A stretch of 64,000 nt of DNA, taken from contig OY782499.1 of assembly GCA_963677815.1 (NCBI GenBank), positions 2,789,252 through 2,853,251 on the forward strand. Reading direction: 5' to 3'. A model generated the notes under the pieces. The model ran no database searches, was not told the DNA's origin, and saw only the letters and a list, made by a program, of their open reading frames with translations. Of the stretch, positions 15,423-53,340 are shown piece by piece (the first letter of the stretch is position 1; every line of letters starts with the position of its first letter). The DNA is from Candidatus Cloacimonadales bacterium (GTDB lineage Bacteria; Cloacimonadota; Cloacimonadia; Cloacimonadales; JAFGVF01). The position numbers were made by a program, and so were the translations under genes.

Positions 15423-15646
15423 TTAACCCAAATAATGCAATAGATCTTTGAGAATAGCACTATATTCTTTTGCAAAAGTAACTTACATAATTCTTCCGAA
15501 TATATATATTATATGCGTAGTTAAGGAATCACCCCCTGTATCCCCCTCAAAGAAGGGGATTTTGCTAAAAGAATATGCACTCTTCGCCTGTGATACGTAG
15601 CTTTAGCGAAGTATTACTAAAGCTCTATTGCACAATCTGGGTTTAA
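15423..15646 (-). mobile_element. TIR element (MITE-like) copy A, about 220 bp, inverted relative to copies B-D
   Basis: Ends are TTAA-CCCAAATAATGCAATAGATCTTTG... and ...CTAAAGCTCTATTGCACAATCTGGG-T-TTAA. The interior contains the AATCCCCTTCTTTGAGGGGGAT hairpin. An extra half-end (GCAGTAGAGCTTTA) lies at 15656-15669. Confidence 0.75.
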
Positions 15647-16993: not shown

Positions 16994-17286
16994 GAGTATT
17001 AACCCCTTTCAGCTCCTTGGAGCGCCTGAGAGGGGTGGTCGAGTAGACCGGGGAGAGTATTTTAACACTAAGTTCGGGCAGGATGCCCGAGTTCCCAGTT
17101 AGAGGGTATTTTAACACCTAGTTCGGGCAGGATGCCCAAGTTCCCAGTTAGAGGGGTATTTTAACACCTAGTTCGGGCAGGATGCCCGAGTTCCCAGTTA
17201 GAGGGGTATTTTAACACCTAGTTCGGGCAGGATGCCCGAGTTCCCAGTTAGAGGGGTGGTCGAGTAGTAGACCGGGGAAAGTATTT
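16994..17286. repeat. composite array: reverse-complement 63-bp module + 4 x 50-bp units (hairpin CGGGCA-gga-TGCCCG + TTCCCAGTTA) + reverse-complement module core
   Basis: TTCGGGCAG starts at 17073, 17122, 17172 and 17222. The flanks GAGGGGTGGTCGAGTAGACCGGGGAGAGTA are the reverse complement of the 899-1115 unit core. Confidence 0.95.
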
Positions 17287-43369: not shown

Positions 43370-43629
43370 TTAACCTAAATGGTATAGTAGTGCTTTAGTA
43401 ATCCCCTTCTTTGAGGGGGATACAGGGGGTGATTCCATAAAGACCTATAAAATCCCCTTCTTTGAGGGGGATATAGGGGGTGATTCCATAAAGACGTATA
43501 AAATCCCCTTCTTTGAGGGGGATACAGGGGGTGATTCCATAAAGACCTATAATATCCCCTTCTTTGAGGGGGATTTTGCATAAGAATATAGTGCTATTCT
43601 CAAAGCTCTACTGCATTATTGGGGTCAAT
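43370..43629 (+). mobile_element. TIR element copy D with its central 51-bp module tandemly amplified (about 3.5 copies)
   Basis: Left end is TTAACCTAAATGGTATAGTAGTGCTTTAGTAAT; right end is ...CTCAAAGCTCTACTGCATTATTGGGGTCAA. AATCCCC unit starts at 43400, 43451, 43502 and 43553 (period 51). Confidence 0.8.
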
Positions 43630-46858: not shown

Positions 46859-46913
46859 GTTTATTATTTAACCAGATTGGTGAACTGTATTTTAGGGGAT
46901 ATTGCAGATTATT

Positions 46914-47190
46914 TTAGCAAAATCCCCTTTCAGCTCTATAACTGGGAACGCGGGCATCCCTGCCCGCACAGGCAGTTCAACTGACTGTATATCTTCAAAA
47001 TCCCCTTCACAAGGGATTTAACAGCTAACTGGGAAAACGGGCATCTTGCCCGTACTGGGAACGCTCTAAATGACACCTGCGTAACCGCGGGCTGGAATCC
47101 CGCGTTCCCAGTTAGATTAATCCCCTTTCAGCAGCACCCCATCTTTGAGGGGGACACAACAGGGGGTGATTCCATAAACTACGCATATAA
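46914..47190. repeat. mosaic of repeat modules forming the left flank of the accessory segment
   Basis: AATCCCCTTTCAGC; TAACTGGGAA-hairpins GCGGGCA-tccc-TGCCCGC and ACGGGC-atctt-GCCCGT. A 66-nt module (47063-47130) is the inverted copy of 52724-52789. A partial TIR-element core lies at 47128-47190. Confidence 0.85.
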
Positions 47191-47208: not shown

Positions 47209-49647
47209 TTAATTTTGATCCAGAAACTTCTTTCTTTCAATATATCCTTGACGTCTATAATTTATGATATCTTTAACAAATGCAAGGACCTGCTTATTGC
47301 ATTTTCTTAAAACTACTAGATCCTCTGGATCAAACCTTAATGAGAAGATAGCACTTTCTGCATCATACATGAAAATTGATGAATCTCTTTTTGTTAGATA
47401 ATGGATTGGATTCTTTTCAGCAAGTTGTTTCCATTCCTTCTCAGTCCATTCTTTAAAATTTGAATTACTTTCATCAGTTAAATCCTTAGCATTTATTGAA
47501 GAATTATAGAATGTCTTAAAGCTAGCAACAATGTTAGTAATATGTGTTTCATTATGTAATTGATTATCATAAACTAGAGCTAGGATAGTAGGTATTTTAT
47601 ATAGTTTTGTCATTGAAGTTTTTTCTACTTCGCTTAGAAAAGATGCTATTTTAGATTTTTTGATAATCTTAAATGTAGCATTTTCTGGGTACAATGATAT
47701 AAGAAAATCTAACCATGAACCGAACGTTTTTAGATAAATCCTGCCTGGTAGGTCAGATGCTGCATTAAATTCACTTAAAGAATATTTATCATCTAAGTTA
47801 TCTTTAATATCAAGATAATTTTCAATAAGTCTTTGTTTAAGAGGTAATTTTTTATTTCTTAGAACTTCAAAAAGGTGGATAAGTTTAAGCTCAATATCTA
47901 GAATACAGGAAACTGGAAGTTGTTCTCTAGTTTGCTCCCAGGACAAACTAGTTTTCTTTTTGATATCTCTGGGGGTAAGACCTGCTAAATAAGATAATTT
48001 AAAATGACTATTCTTATAATTGCCTACAAAATCTAAAATAATTAGTTTATCTTTGTTATTACTAGTTCTTAAACCTCTACCTAACTGTTGAATAAAAATG
48101 GTAAAAGATTCTGTGGGTCGTAAAAACATAACAGTATCAATATGAGGTATATCAACACCTTCATTAAATATATCTACTACACATAAAACTGATATTTTAC
48201 CTTGAGAAAAGTCTTCAATAATGTTCGTACGCGAGTTTATTCCTGAATGAAGAGCAACTGCGTTAATATTGTTTTTTTGGAACTGATTTGCAGTATAGTC
48301 AGCATGTTTAACAGAGCAACAGAAAGCAAGAGTGCTTTTCCTAGCCTTCTCACGATAATTTTTTATTATATTATTTGCTCTTTGGTCAACCATATAGACG
48401 TTTTCTAATTCATTGATATCATATCGACCAGATCGCCAAGGTATTTTTTCATAATCAATATCATCATAGATACCATAATATGTAAAGGGTACAAGCCAGC
48501 CATTATTAATAGCTGTTTTGAAATTACATTGAAAGGCTATGTTATAATCACAATATTGATAAATATCTTTGTTGTCAAGTCTGTTTGGAGTTGCTGTTAG
48601 ACCTAATAAGAATTTAGGAGTGAAATAGTCTAAAAAAGAAAGATAGCTATTAGCAGCAGAATGATGAAATTCATCAACGATAATATAATCGAAATAATCA
48701 GATGAAAAATAATCATCATTAAGATATATGTTTTTACCGATAGTAGAAATTGAGGCAAATATTATATCTTTATCAGTTTCTTTTATATCAGCATTAAAGT
48801 CTCCAAAACTAGCTTTTGTCCTGATTTTTTTAAAGGTTTCTTTAGCTTGAATTAATATTTCTTGTCTGTGGGCAACAAACAGTACTCGTTTAAATTTTTT
48901 TGAATCAAAGGCTGAGAGGAAAGTTTTGCCAAGTCCAGTAGCCATAACTATAAGTGCTTTATTGAAACCTTCTTTCCTTGTTCTTTCTAATTCATAAAGA
49001 GCAGGAATTTGGCATTTGATTGGTTTGTATTTTGAACTAGTAAGTGGTTGGGGATTTGGATTACTGTCATCAGTTTCAGGTTTAAAATAATGTGAAGGAT
49101 CAAAATCCGGTTTAAAATGTTCAGATGTTATAGGTTTGTATTCCATAAAATATTTTTGAAGCCATTCATCACTGGGATTAAAACTATAATTTTCTACTAT
49201 ATCATCATACTGACTTAGAAATTCTTTTATTGCATTTTTTTCATCGAAAAGTATATTCCATTCTAGGCCAGTTGTAAGAGCTATTTGAGAAATATTTGAA
49301 GATCCAATAACCATCTCTTCACTATCTTCCATGAACTTAAAATAATATCCTTTTATGTGGAATGAAGTTTTAAACTTATTATGATCAAAGATAGAAAGAG
49401 AAAAATTGTCATTATTTAGTGATTTAAGCTTATAAAGAGCTACAGGCTCTGTAACATTAAGATAAGTGCTTGTTAGAATGCTTACTTTAGCATTATTAGT
49501 CAAAGCACGCTTGAGATAACTAAATAATAAGTCAACTCCTGAGCTTTTAATAAAGGAAACACAGAAAATGATTTCTTTTGCAGATGCTAGCTTATCTTCA
49601 AGAATATCTTTAAGTGAGGATTGCTTGGAATTGGTGATAGCTTTCAT
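47209..49647 (-). CDS. PLD-like (HKD) nuclease domain + SF2 (ResIII/DEAD-like) helicase + C-terminal DUF3427-like extension
   Basis: N-terminus has FHIKGYYF...VIGSSNIS (HKD-like). Helicase motifs are I MATGLGKT, II IVDEFHH, III GLTATP and VI QQLGRGLR. A roughly 230-aa C-terminal region follows, in the position DUF3427 occupies in this architecture as I recall it. Confidence 0.8.
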   Translation of the reverse strand: MKAITNSKQSSLKDILEDKLASAKEIIFCVSFIKSSGVDLLFSYLKRALTNNAKVSILTSTYLNVTEPVALYKLKSLNNDNFSLSIFDHNKFKTSFHIKGYYFKFMEDSEEMVIGSSNISQIALTTGLEWNILFDEKNAIKEFLSQYDDIVENYSFNPSDEWLQKYFMEYKPITSEHFKPDFDPSHYFKPETDDSNPNPQPLTSSKYKPIKCQIPALYELERTRKEGFNKALIVMATGLGKTFLSAFDSKKFKRVLFVAHRQEILIQAKETFKKIRTKASFGDFNADIKETDKDIIFASISTIGKNIYLNDDYFSSDYFDYIIVDEFHHSAANSYLSFLDYFTPKFLLGLTATPNRLDNKDIYQYCDYNIAFQCNFKTAINNGWLVPFTYYGIYDDIDYEKIPWRSGRYDINELENVYMVDQRANNIIKNYREKARKSTLAFCCSVKHADYTANQFQKNNINAVALHSGINSRTNIIEDFSQGKISVLCVVDIFNEGVDIPHIDTVMFLRPTESFTIFIQQLGRGLRTSNNKDKLIILDFVGNYKNSHFKLSYLAGLTPRDIKKKTSLSWEQTREQLPVSCILDIELKLIHLFEVLRNKKLPLKQRLIENYLDIKDNLDDKYSLSEFNAASDLPGRIYLKTFGSWLDFLISLYPENATFKIIKKSKIASFLSEVEKTSMTKLYKIPTILALVYDNQLHNETHITNIVASFKTFYNSSINAKDLTDESNSNFKEWTEKEWKQLAEKNPIHYLTKRDSSIFMYDAESAIFSLRFDPEDLVVLRKCNKQVLAFVKDIINYRRQGYIERKKFLDQN

Positions 49648-49648
49648 A

Positions 49649-50221
49649 TTATTTATTTAAAAGAACATTTAACCATTTTTCAGTCTCTCTACCAGGCCTT
49701 TTGTCTTGTGAAATAGTGTATTCAACTAAAGAAAAACCTATCTGCTGATAGTTGAGAGATTCGAACTTTTCCTGAGTATAATCACAAAAAAAACGTCCGT
49801 GACGAAATTCTTCTTTTTTGCCATACTTCAATGATAAAAAAAGATAACCACCATTCTTGAGAGATTGATAGATATTTTTCAGAGCATTAGGCATTTGACT
49901 TGATGGAATATGTAAAAGTGAAGCACAAGCCCAAGCTCCAATAAATCTATCTTGGTATTTAATATCAGCAATTTTTTCATTAGAGATTTTAAGCCCCAAA
50001 TAATTCTCAGCTAACTTAGCTAGTTCTTCAGCTGGTTCTAGTGGTAAGACTTTATATCCATGAGACATAAACACTTTAGAGTCTCTACCTGAACCACAGC
50101 CAATATCCAAAATTTCACCTTGAGAAGGTAAATAAGACATAAAGTAGTTTTGTAGTTTGCTCATATCGACGTTTAAAGTGGATTCAAAATATTCTTGTGC
50201 ATTTTTATTATAATAATTCAT
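49649..50221 (-). CDS. class I SAM-dependent methyltransferase (small-molecule/RNA-type, 190 aa)
   Basis: Motif I ILDIGCGSGRDS and a post-I acidic residue (LPLE). No DPPY/NPPY or PCQ DNA-MTase motifs seen. Its stop is 1 nt from the downstream helicase ATG. Confidence 0.8.
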   Translation of the reverse strand: MNYYNKNAQEYFESTLNVDMSKLQNYFMSYLPSQGEILDIGCGSGRDSKVFMSHGYKVLPLEPAEELAKLAENYLGLKISNEKIADIKYQDRFIGAWACASLLHIPSSQMPNALKNIYQSLKNGGYLFLSLKYGKKEEFRHGRFFCDYTQEKFESLNYQQIGFSLVEYTISQDKRPGRETEKWLNVLLNK

Positions 50222-50518
50222 ATTTTACTCCATAAGCTATTATAGTCTTATAATAATTTTGGATTCAGGTGTCAATGATTATTTCTTCTGAAAAGAATAA
50301 ATATTTTGAAGACTATTCAACCATCAAGCTACCTTCCCCAGCAGCATATTCTTTAAGAAGTCTATAATGTTGCCCATCATTTGTTATTTTTACTTTGTTA
50401 AATAAGTTTAGCTAATAGCATTTACTCTAGGTTAGGATTGCTGAAAAACAAATCTTCTTTCAAGATGTAGTTAAACTTTTCTTAAAATCCCTGAGGATTT
50501 AAGAGGCTTATTCCATTT

Positions 50519-50613
50519 GAGCTGAAAGGGGATTAATACTCTCCCCGGTCTAATCGATCACCCCTCTCAAGCGCCCCAAGGAGCTGAAAGGGGATTAATA
50601 CTCTCTCCCGTCT
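50519..50613 (+). repeat. about 1.5 copies of the 63-bp module (variant GGGGATTAATACTCTCCCCGGTCTAATCGATCACCCCTCTCAAGCGCCCCAAG)
   Basis: GAGCTGAAAGG occurs at 50519 and 50581. Confidence 0.85.
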
Positions 50614-50698
50614 TTAAGAGTGTTGGAAGTCGCTACTGCATGCATGAGAATGGTAAAGTTCATTGATTACCTACTATATCCGAATAGTTATTCCTTTC

Positions 50699-50756
50699 CT
50701 TGATTGTTACTCTCTCAATAAAAATTCCATGATTAAATGAGTAAGTAACAATCAAG
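50699..50756. repeat. long-stem hairpin H, copy 3
   Basis: CTTGATTGTTACTC...GAGTAA(gtaa)CAATCAAG, 120 bp upstream of the 50876 ORF. Confidence 0.8.
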
Positions 50757-50875
50757 AAATTTACTAAAATAAAAATATTTTTTTTTCTAGAAGTGCACCA
50801 ATTTCAGGAAAATGGACCCTATAGTATTGTGTAAGGCTTGCAAGCAAAACAAAAAAATTAAAAAGAGGTAAAAAA

Positions 50876-51340
50876 ATGAAAGTAAAATTTAAGTATGGAA
50901 TCAAGAGTTATTCAGGCACATTAGATGATATGGTATTTGCAAATTTTGAAGACAGAAATGTTGTGATTGGAAGAATGTTACCGGCAGATAGAGAAGCTAC
51001 TCCGCAGAATGAGATAATTGCTAGTAATTCTAGAATCATTAGTACATTTTATAAATCTTTGTCAGCAGCATACAAACAAGATTTAACAGAATACGCTAAG
51101 AAGATGTTTAATTTGAAAGCCTATTCCAATCGCGTGGCTGGTTCTGGTTATTCAGTATTCAATAAGATAATTTGGGCAGCTAATGATGATACAGGAAATC
51201 CATTAGATATATCATCTCTTTCAGCTGACGATATTGTTGCTGGCACTTATCCTCAGATTGATACAATCAAGGCTGCAGTAGAAAATGGATATATACCTAT
51301 GGTAGGAGGTTATGAAGAATTTAATAATCCTCTAGTATAA
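50876..51340 (+). CDS. hypothetical protein (154 aa)
   Basis: ATG preceded by AAGAGG; followed by a hairpin and T-tract terminator. No recognisable motif. Confidence 0.5.
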   Translation: MKVKFKYGIKSYSGTLDDMVFANFEDRNVVIGRMLPADREATPQNEIIASNSRIISTFYKSLSAAYKQDLTEYAKKMFNLKAYSNRVAGSGYSVFNKIIWAANDDTGNPLDISSLSADDIVAGTYPQIDTIKAAVENGYIPMVGGYEEFNNPLV

Positions 51341-51857: not shown

Positions 51858-52081
51858 TTAACCCAGATAGTGAAGAAGAACTTTATTAATACTTGGCTAA
51901 AGCTACGTATCACAGGTGAAGAATGCAGATTATTCTAGCAAAATCCCCTTCTTTGTGGGGGATACAGGGGGTGACTCCATCAACTACGCATATAATATAT
52001 ATATTCGGAGAAATTATGGAAGTTACTTTTGCAGAATAATATAGTGCTATTCACAAAGGTCTTGTGCATTATTTGGTTTAA
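51858..52081 (+). mobile_element. TIR element (MITE-like) copy B
   Basis: TTAA-CCCAGATAGTGAAGAAGAACTTTATTAATAC...core AATCCCCTTCTTTGTGGGGGATACAGGGGGTGACTCC...CACAAAGGTCTTGTGCATTATTTGG-T-TTAA. Confidence 0.75.
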
Positions 52082-52103
52082 GCATAGTTTTACAGGAGTA
52101 TAT

Positions 52104-52718
52104 ATGCAAATAGAAATGCAATACAATCATAAACAAGATTCTCTCATTATTAAATCAGCAGGTCTCAAGGATGTAGTTTTGAAGTCAAGTGTAGGGGCAA
52201 AATCATTATATCATTTAATTAATAATCCAAACAGATCATTTTCTCCGATATTATTAAGGAATATTACTAAAGAAGAGGTTAACTTATCAAATATGATTAA
52301 AGAAAAATTTGAGATTACAAGTAGAGAAGATCAATTATTATATCAATCAATACATCAGTATATACCTGCATCAGATATGAAGACTATAATAGAATGTAGA
52401 AAAAGGTTAAAGGTTATTTTAGAAGAATTGAGGGAAGCAGACTTCAATAACGATATTGGCAGAAGCGAAACACTTGTTGAAGAGAAAGAATTTATTGAAA
52501 AATATATTCATGATTCTGTTAGTGCTAATGGCTCTTTTAGAAACCTAAATAATTCTAAGAGAAATGCAACCAAAGCTCTTCAAAGAAATATTAGAAATGT
52601 TTTGAATGAAATAGATGAACAATCTCCAGAAATATATAAGTTTATTACAAAAAGATTGATAGTATCAACAAATCAGATAAAATATTACCCTGATAATGAT
52701 TATACTAGTGTAGATTAA
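52104..52718 (+). CDS. hypothetical protein (204 aa), possibly regulatory
   Basis: ATG at 52104 is preceded by AGGAG (52094-52098). The ORF-track start at 52029 is a TTG inside repeat element B. Helical, K/E/N-rich. Confidence 0.5.
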   Translation: MQIEMQYNHKQDSLIIKSAGLKDVVLKSSVGAKSLYHLINNPNRSFSPILLRNITKEEVNLSNMIKEKFEITSREDQLLYQSIHQYIPASDMKTIIECRKRLKVILEELREADFNNDIGRSETLVEEKEFIEKYIHDSVSANGSFRNLNNSKRNATKALQRNIRNVLNEIDEQSPEIYKFITKRLIVSTNQIKYYPDNDYTSVD

Positions 52719-52723
52719 ACCAT

Positions 52724-53213
52724 GAAAGGGGATTAATCTAACTGGGAATGCGGGATTCTAGCCCGCGGTTACGCAGGTGTCATTTAGATGGCGGAGAAAA
52801 TCTCCACCGTCCGACAAATACTCTCCCCGGTCTACACGACCACCCCTCTCAGGCGCTCTAGCGAGCTGAAAGGGGATTGTTTACTCTCCCCGGTCTTATC
52901 GACCACCCCTCTCAGGCGCTCCAAGGAGCTGAAAGGGGATTAATCTAACTGGGAATGCGGGATTCTAGCCCGCGGTTACGCAGGTGTCATTTAGATGGCG
53001 GAGAAAATCTCCACCGTCCGACAAATACTCTTGTCCCCGGTCTACACGACCACCCCTCTCAAACGCTCCAAGGAGCTGAAAGGGGATTGTTTACTCTCCC
53101 CGGTCTACACGACCACCCCTCTCAGCCGCTCCAAGGAGCTGAAAGGGGATTAATACAGGGATGCCCGTGTTCCCAGTTATATATGCGGATGTGGTCATCC
53201 GCCTTCCCAGTTA
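52724..53213 (+). repeat. higher-order repeat: about 208-bp unit x2, followed by two TTCCCAGTTA hairpins. Each unit = 66-nt module + GGCGGAGA-aaa-TCTCCACC hairpin + two 63-bp modules.
   Basis: GAAAGGGGATTAAT occurs at 52724, 52931 and 53141. Confidence 0.9.
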
Positions 53214-53340
53214 TAAAGCTGGAAGGGGATTTTAATCCGAGAGAATCCCCATCTCCCTTCGCTAATACATTCTACATAGCTTTAGCCTAGTAGAAAGCTT
53301 CGGAAGAAAAACCGTCGATTAGAGAGCTTTTTCCTAATAT

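Follow-up and report, generated by a model that had tools for sequence, protein, structure and literature searches.

Why should a gene for a small methyltransferase lie directly upstream of one for a nuclease fused to a helicase, and what kind of system would the two form? The question is raised by a stretch of 64,000 nucleotides from a Candidatus Cloacimonadales bacterium (contig OY782499.1, positions 2,789,252 to 2,853,251), the whole of which is referred to here as the window. On its minus strand, two open reading frames (ORFs) encode a 190-residue S-adenosylmethionine (SAM)-dependent methyltransferase (MTase) and an 812-residue protein that joins a PLD-type nuclease to a helicase-like ATPase of superfamily 2 (SF2). 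An earlier reading of the letters alone, the original prediction, had proposed that this pair is an uncharacterised defence-type module. Our analysis indicates that the locus very probably encodes a defence nuclease of the SauUSI family together with a genuine MTase partner.

Identity of the nuclease-helicase

SauUSI is a Type IV ATP-dependent restriction enzyme of Staphylococcus aureus that cuts DNA carrying 5mC or 5hmC. It was described biochemically in 2011 (PMC3141236) and structurally in 2021 (PMC7913695). It begins with a PLD nuclease (residues 1-191) and continues with an SF2 ATPase (221-617) and a helical coupler (618-805); its SRA-fold reader (806-953), the core of Pfam DUF3427, reads 5-methylcytosine. 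On the basis of its ORF, its domain and structure matches and its homologue family, the 812-residue window protein (47209-49647, minus strand) is assigned to the same family, as a nuclease-translocase with the first three of these parts and no reader. It matches PLDc_2 over residues 19-148 (9.2e-8), ResIII over 207-356 (2e-36) and Helicase_C over 427-528 (2e-15) in Pfam, and the "Type IV methyl-directed restriction enzyme" model (mREase_IV, 3.5e-83) in PADLOC. Its best match in the PDB is 7CLG (E=2.8e-78), with which it is collinear over residues 2-673 in phmmer, to SauUSI residue 688; the preprint on the MANTIS system (10.64898/2026.09.23.753747) cites 7CLG as the structure that Tumuluri et al. 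2021 determined for SauUSI. About 8,000 database proteins match the window protein at E<=1e-10; among the nearest 120, most have 770-815 residues and no DUF3427 annotation.

Both catalytic domains retain their motifs. In the PLD/HKD nuclease domain (residues 19-148; 49204-49593, minus strand), which aligns to the HxK motif of SauUSI, H97, K99 and G115-S-S-N118 are invariant in an alignment of 26 family members. The same is true, in the SF2 helicase-like ATPase (residues ~207-545; 48013-49029, minus strand), of T237-GLGKT242 (motif I), D325-E326-x-H328-H329 (motif II, DEFHH), T351-ATP354 (motif III) and Q520-QLGRGLR527 (motif VI), all of them intact in the window protein. Because these HKD and helicase residues are invariant, the enzyme looks catalytically competent.

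Two other identities were considered for this protein. Its best NCBIfam match is to RadD (4.1e-40), which would make it a RadD-like helicase of DNA repair and not a defence nuclease. That match, however, reaches 137.6 bits against a cut-off of 720 and covers the ATPase only; a PLD nuclease is lacking in RadD, it is SauUSI that the protein matches over its full length, and the distribution of the nuclease-helicase is patchy and mobile, unlike that of a core gene, so that a repair helicase is a most improbable identity. With DISARM DrmC and Mokosh, the protein shares the PLD nuclease fold alone (PADLOC DrmC, 1.1e-5). Membership in either system was rejected: the NCBIfam DrmC match is limited to the PLD domain and its 18 bits fall short of the cut-off, 133, and neither DrmA, DrmB and the DISARM MTase nor an MkoA-type helicase of Mokosh is present.

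What most distinguishes the window protein from SauUSI is its C-terminus (residues 546-812; 47212-48012, minus strand). Neither the whole protein nor this region alone, even at E<=10, matches DUF3427 in Pfam. An AlphaFold2 model of the region (predicted local distance difference test score, pLDDT, 90.2) is almost wholly helical with only two small hairpins; it contains no SRA beta-barrel, and Foldseek returned no significant PDB match for it. When aligned with hhalign to the post-ATPase region of relatives that bear DUF3427, the C-terminal ~267 residues match with a probability of 98.7% (E=1.6e-16), but the match stays within columns 31-240 of the 406 in the template, and nothing aligns to the final ~165, which correspond to the reader. 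As judged from the alignment and the model, then, the protein is a SauUSI without its C-terminal SRA/DUF3427 reader, ending in a helical coupler that stops where the reader of its relatives starts. It is like SauUSI in its PLD/HKD nuclease (HxK, GSxN), SF2 DExH ATPase, alpha-helical coupler and adjacent accessory gene, which is typical of the family, and differs in lacking the 5-methylcytosine reader, so that it may not depend on DNA modification.

These results redraw the original prediction at several points. The HKD and helicase motifs that it had quoted are present and, as described above, invariant. The scan against Pfam and PADLOC that it had proposed returned PLDc_2, ResIII, Helicase_C, Methyltransf_11/25 and mREase_IV, and did not return DUF3427; its "DUF3427-like" C-terminus is thus withdrawn in favour of a coupler. 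Its statement that the architecture is experimentally uncharacterised does not hold either, since a PLD nuclease, an SF2 ATPase and DUF3427 together are SauUSI, which is already modelled in PADLOC.

The methyltransferase and its pairing with the nuclease

The MTase gene (49649-50221, minus strand) ends one nucleotide before the nuclease-helicase gene begins (...AAA TAA T ATG AAA...), and from this junction the downstream gene is taken to be translationally coupled to the MTase gene, the two forming an operon. The protein matches Methyltransf_23/25/11 in Pfam (1.7e-11 to 2.6e-10, above cut-off). Its motif I is ILDIGCGSGRDS, in which D39-G41-G43-G45 are invariant in the family, and R46, K132, R143, R175 and R178 form a further invariant signature. 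Matches in NCBIfam are generic (TehB, UbiG, BioC-like) and all far below cut-off. The AlphaFold2 model (pLDDT 96.8) lies closest to RPA2492 (PDB 3E23; 2e-17 by sequence, template-modelling score 0.90 by Foldseek), a structural-genomics SAM methyltransferase that is itself uncharacterised and gives no functional information. Other near folds are toxoflavin N1-MTase, natural-product MTases, the protein N-terminal MTases NTMT1/2 and Trm112-type tRNA/rRNA MTases (Trm9/Bud23), and the top 50 structural neighbours include no DNA MTase. No DPPY or PCQ, (D/N/S)PP(Y/F/W) or PC/ENV motif occurs in the protein or its family alignment, the motif IV region reading WACASLLH, and a target-recognition domain is absent because 190 residues leave no room for one. 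From its sequence and model the protein is therefore classed as a class I SAM-dependent, Rossmann-like MTase of non-DNA type. That its substrate is a nucleotide or another small molecule is a tentative proposal.

Whether the two genes belong together was addressed by censuses in both directions. A forward census covered 80 genome loci encoding relatives of the nuclease-helicase (31-43% identity), and in 25 of these a full-length MTase homologue (26-43% identity) is a neighbour: upstream in 18, including one fusion, directly downstream in five, downstream at 2.8 kb in one and divergent in one. The pairs come from eight or more phyla and include Fusobacteriota, Chloroflexota, Clostridia (Bacillota), Spirochaetota, Gammaproteobacteria (Chromatiaceae and Pseudoalteromonas), Alphaproteobacteria (Rhodobacterales), Desulfobacterota and Cloacimonadota. 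For the reverse census, the MTase alone served to retrieve 80 metagenome loci; a PLD-helicase adjoins it in 35 and an unrelated HNH_4 protein in another 23, many of the remaining contigs being too short to judge. The MTase also accompanies relatives with a genuine DUF3427 reader (L041, L043, L048 and L069), and it is linked to seven out of seven nuclease-helicases of ~970-1140 residues with an S24-type C-terminus. Three independent in-frame fusions of MTase and nuclease-helicase were recovered (P0016, L051 and a Polaromonas plasmid gene cut by an insertion sequence, IS).

The pair is also inherited and moved as a unit. Within the window clade it is kept in all eight loci of close relatives (49-67% identity), each in a different chromosomal neighbourhood, and plasmid copies of the cassette adjoin integrases, transposases or IS elements, toxin-antitoxin genes and a HipA module. 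Since the MTase family comprises about 1,100 clusters among 5.8 billion proteins, adjacency in 25 of 80 loci is far beyond chance: the MTase is a dedicated, co-inherited and co-mobile partner of the nuclease-helicase. A housekeeping small-molecule MTase that merely happens to lie beside a stand-alone restriction gene would agree with the generic Pfam and NCBIfam matches and with the housekeeping surroundings in the window; it is effectively refuted by the census, in view of the recurrence in both directions, in either gene order and across phyla, the three fusions and the co-mobility, and we give it almost no credence. From these changing contexts, the locus is interpreted as a mobile defence cassette and not as a syntenic core gene.

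Much of the original prediction is thus upheld for the pair. The two minus-strand ORFs and their 1-nt junction were confirmed in the sequence, the two-gene operon is borne out, and motif I of the MTase is as it had been given. The absence of DPPY and PCQ and its suggestion of a small-molecule or RNA type agree with nearest folds that are small-molecule, protein and RNA MTases. The neighbourhood census that it had proposed revealed an enrichment whose absence it had named as counting against it, and its view of the locus as a defence-type module, as opposed to a conserved core gene, agrees with the differing contexts among close relatives and the plasmid copies.

Could the MTase nevertheless mark DNA? 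In an unconventional restriction-modification (R-M) system, it would be recruited by, or ride on, the translocase and mark host DNA, leaving the readerless nuclease to attack unmarked DNA, as in Type I, III and ISP systems or in MANTIS. Type ISP enzymes (LlaGI/LlaBIII) have a nuclease-ATPase-coupler layout together with MTase activity, and among the CglI/NgoAVII-type R-M systems a PLD nuclease and an SF2 motor are combined in CglI. In both types the MTase is a canonical DNA MTase that carries a recognition domain, and restriction is directed at defined sites in unmodified DNA; in contrast, neither a canonical DNA MTase nor a recognition domain nor site-specific restriction of unmodified DNA is evident at the window locus. 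MANTIS comes closer, in that its MtsD is a SauUSI-like PLD-ATPase without a target-recognition domain that works with an MTase in the same system and is proposed to restrict unmethylated DNA (10.64898/2026.09.23.753747). The missing 5-methylcytosine reader, owing to which the window enzyme cannot work exactly as SauUSI does, is in keeping with an R-M function, as are the tight coupling of the genes, the MTase fusions, conserved basic residues of the MTase that could bind DNA, and the NCBI name "DNA methyltransferase" carried by one homologue (P0230).

The differences from such systems are nevertheless considerable. MANTIS comprises four to five genes, which encode, among others, an AAA+ protein of ORC/Cdc6 type and an N6-adenine DNA MTase with a DPPY motif, as against two genes and a small MTase of non-DNA type in the window. 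It requires MtsA (AAA+), MtsB (DUF3870) and MtsC, none of which is found among the ORFs neighbouring the window pair, and MtsD also lacks the "additional linker" domain of SauUSI, whereas the window protein keeps the coupler (10.64898/2026.09.23.753747). The lack of a DNA-MTase catalytic motif, of room for a recognition domain and of any DNA MTase among the structural neighbours all argue against a self mark, as does the presence of the same MTase beside reader-bearing relatives. We therefore consider DNA marking by this MTase unlikely.

Several observations on relatives concern the C-terminus of the nuclease or the partners of the MTase. The S24-type enzymes (L037, L039, L045, L047, L049, L050 and L051, from Chromatiaceae, Pseudoalteromonas and Cloacimonadota) end in a Peptidase_S24/UmuD-like domain of ~180 residues, which stands in the place of the SRA reader of SauUSI, and LexA-like control by RecA-stimulated self-cleavage is a possibility for them. 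A second, longer PLD-helicase paralogue stands beside the retrieved gene in 18 loci (L003, L005, L014, L017, L021, L026, L052, L054 and others). The longer copy checked, in L003, carries DUF3427, and the retrieved gene in the named loci is the short readerless form, an arrangement that suggests a heterodimer of reader-bearing and readerless proteins. The HNH_4 partners of the MTase form a family of ~350-400 residues in which the N-terminal ~230 residues are unannotated and a Cas9-type HNH_4 motif is present (L084:3902-4999, L083:5269-6444, L128:5546-6724, L171:5596-6621 and about 20 more), and some of these loci are NUDIX-MTase-HNH operons. In Jannaschia (L035:5600-6000), the MTase lies upstream of a DUF3427-type enzyme and is split into fragments of 133 and 82 residues, apparently a partner gene in decay next to a nuclease-helicase that is still intact.

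The accessory slot and candidate functions

If the MTase is a true partner and is not expected to mark DNA, its role may be sought among the genes that take its place elsewhere. Clustering of the immediate neighbours of the nuclease-helicase across the 80 forward-census loci revealed an accessory gene in 67 and none in the remaining 13. The commonest occupant (33/80) is a 108-residue, all-α, MazG-like nucleoside triphosphate (NTP) pyrophosphatase; among 26 aligned proteins, 26 match PRA-PH and 18 match MazG-like, and there are weak PDB profile matches to YpjD and MazZ. The small MTase (25/80) is followed by a HIT hydrolase (15/80; PF01230, 1.6e-22) and a MutT-like NUDIX protein (12/80; PF00293, 2e-19). 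The MTase occurs together with MazG or HIT in a single locus of the 80 (Fisher p=3e-9, which is not a true probability as the loci are related). On a tree of the PLD and ATPase core, MTase-linked genes are scattered over at least four separate clades and MazG/HIT sub-branches are nested within the window-type MTase clade, from which it follows that the accessory has been swapped repeatedly.

The occupants of this slot also occur in fusions. Three NUDIX-MTase fusions were found (P0239; L125, which adjoins a PLD-helicase of 1048 residues; and L157), and in L030 a MazG-like NTP-pyrophosphatase domain is fused to the N-terminus of the nuclease-helicase, at the position where the MTase is fused elsewhere. 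As side observations, L030, L032 and L036 are proteobacterial relatives of ~1000-1026 residues with a HIT gene upstream, and in L032 a MazG-like match falls either within the start of the nuclease-helicase gene or just upstream.

An accessory gene of this kind had been noticed before. Xu et al. (PMC3141236) reported that sauUSI, like at least 60 relatives, has a linked pyrophosphohydrolase/NUDIX-like gene of unknown function, and Monk et al. (PMC3312211) noted that deletion of the SauUSI-linked gene (one unpublished deletion) did not relieve restriction. The SAUSA300_2432-type pyrophosphohydrolase next to sauUSI and the MazG-like enzymes occupy the same genomic slot in sister loci, yet they are hydrolases, where the window has a SAM methyltransferase. 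The slot itself is thus already known from SauUSI, and its occupancy by an MTase is the part that appears new. We found no described MTase partner of SauUSI-like enzymes within the literature searched, in which both the MTase as an alternative occupant and the NUDIX-MTase fusions appear to be undescribed. To speak of a system of a new kind, as the original prediction did, is for the same reason an overstatement: the locus is a variant within the SauUSI family, with an MTase in a slot already noted for SauUSI.

On balance, we favour by a narrow measure the explanation that the locus is a mobile SauUSI-type nuclease with an accessory MTase that acts on a nucleotide rather than on DNA. By analogy with SauUSI (PMC7913695), two copies of the nuclease would come together by way of their PLD domains as a dimer with a single active site, which would use ATP hydrolysis to translocate along double-stranded DNA before making a double-strand cut. 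The MTase would act on a nucleotide or nucleobase-like small molecule, and not on DNA as a self mark, because it shares its slot with MazG, HIT and NUDIX hydrolases and is fused to NUDIX in some loci. An accessory enzyme of this sort could bar modified nucleotides from host DNA, so that the host does not restrict itself, or deplete the supply of modified nucleotides on which a phage depends. There is a precedent for such sanitation of the pool in the human MazG-like enzyme DCTPP1, which acts on 5-methyl-dCTP (PMC4491611). Judging from the NUDIX gene deletion in S. aureus, the MTase is probably dispensable for cleavage itself. More speculatively, SauUSI-like enzymes and the HNH family might both carry an interchangeable "nucleotide-pool arm", whether MazG-like, HIT, NUDIX or MTase. 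The MTase would then chemically change a nucleotide or nucleobase that is modified or of phage type, either to bar it from host DNA or to starve the phage; we regard this generalisation as doubtful at present.

The swapping of the accessory also bears on the alternatives. MazG, HIT and NUDIX hydrolases cannot mark DNA, and alternation of the MTase with them is a further argument against the R-M explanation given above. A regulatory role would be different again: the MTase might methylate the nuclease-helicase or another protein, or might sense SAM and free the nuclease when a phage depletes it. The protein N-terminal methyltransferases NTMT1/2 among the structural neighbours are compatible with such a role; fusion and translational coupling imply physical association, and service to two unrelated nucleases is what a generic regulator might show. 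Regulation, however, leaves the alternation with, and fusion to, nucleotide hydrolases unexplained; there is no sign of a methyl-acceptor motif in the nuclease, and SauUSI relatives act as single polypeptides (PMC3141236, PMC3874153). It is accordingly judged improbable, to much the same degree as DNA marking.

The nucleotide explanation itself has to be set against several points that weigh on the other side. A nucleotide substrate is inferred from slot-sharing with hydrolases, which is circumstantial and comes from phylogenetically related loci, and a methyltransferase is a chemically odd replacement for a hydrolase. The readerless window enzyme may be independent of modification, which makes the logic of sanitising modified nucleotides weaker for this locus. 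In Lysinibacillus composti (L085:4123-5600), a member of the MTase family stands 2 nt behind a gene for an ADP-ribosylglycohydrolase and has no nuclease in its vicinity, a setting at odds with a nuclease partner, and the 64-kb window contains no other defence-like gene beyond the cassette.

Surroundings of the cassette and wider significance

Divergent from the MTase lies a gene for a 154-residue protein without recognised domain (p154; 50876-51340, plus strand), for which there is no match in Pfam, NCBIfam, PADLOC, PHROGs or the PDB. A homologue 43-58% identical stands beside the pair in six of seven clade loci, whose chromosomal contexts all differ, and p154 is present once where the pair is absent (L174); the family numbers only 52 database clusters, one of which is named Candidatus Cloacimonas. 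The idea that p154 is a detached SRA/DUF3427 reader, prompted by Lutz et al. 2019, was rejected on grounds of sequence, to which it is unrelated (hhalign probability 0.2%). In four clade loci p154 is followed by a 229-residue ORF (52029-52718, plus strand in the window), which has no family match in Pfam, NCBIfam, PADLOC or a further family search. Its homology begins near residues 23-28, and the ATG near 52104 is probably where it truly starts. Both proteins are lineage-restricted and, in Cloacimonadota-like genomes, mostly accompany the MTase-nuclease pair. In one close relative (L081:10668-13158), an AAA_15/AAA_21/SMC_N ATPase gene and two small ORFs directly downstream of the cassette may be a second defence system.

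The 6.3-kb segment that holds the cassette is bracketed by inverted copies of dispersed repeats resembling repetitive extragenic palindromes or miniature inverted-repeat transposable elements (REP/MITE-like), identified by inverted-repeat comparison in a left block (46903-47190) and a right block (52723-53233). The clearest pair, 47065-47132 against 52928-52995, extends over 68 nt at 97%, and there are further such pairs. We rejected these repeats as cassette-specific termini and regard them as dispersed elements, because the same motifs recur at about 15.5, 17.1, 43.4 and 60.9 kb of the window. They comprise two families of GC-rich motif, CCCCTTCTTTGAGGGGGAT and TAACTGGGAACGCGGGCATCC, located at 15540, 17081-17250, 43400-43580, 50479-50599, 51924-52014 and 60925 as well as in the two blocks. 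They sometimes form tandem arrays of ~50 nt, the long inverted repeats cluster around the cassette, and spurious ORFs at 43375-43581 and 52955-53290 arise from them. Between the divergent MTase and p154 genes, a 27-nt inverted repeat (50696-50759; 81% complementary, 10-nt loop) could be an operator or a terminator; a scan of the sequence for sigma-70 promoters and terminators gave counts equal to those of shuffles and was uninformative. The surroundings are housekeeping in character, the adjoining ORFs encoding an M28 peptidase and a pair of small proteins that lack annotation, and the 64-kb window contains no separate DUF3427 gene, second PLD-helicase paralogue or MazG, HIT or NUDIX gene.

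In staphylococci, SauUSI is what chiefly impedes genetic manipulation and horizontal gene transfer, and enzymes related to it are widespread. The present analysis defines a readerless subfamily of these enzymes, and finds that the same MTase serves two unrelated nucleases, the SauUSI-like PLD-helicase and the HNH protein. If the accessories act on nucleotide pools, the restriction of modified DNA would be linked to the control of modified nucleotides. This would constitute an undescribed layer of modification-dependent immunity, and would account for the SauUSI-linked pyrophosphohydrolase, which has been unexplained since 2011.

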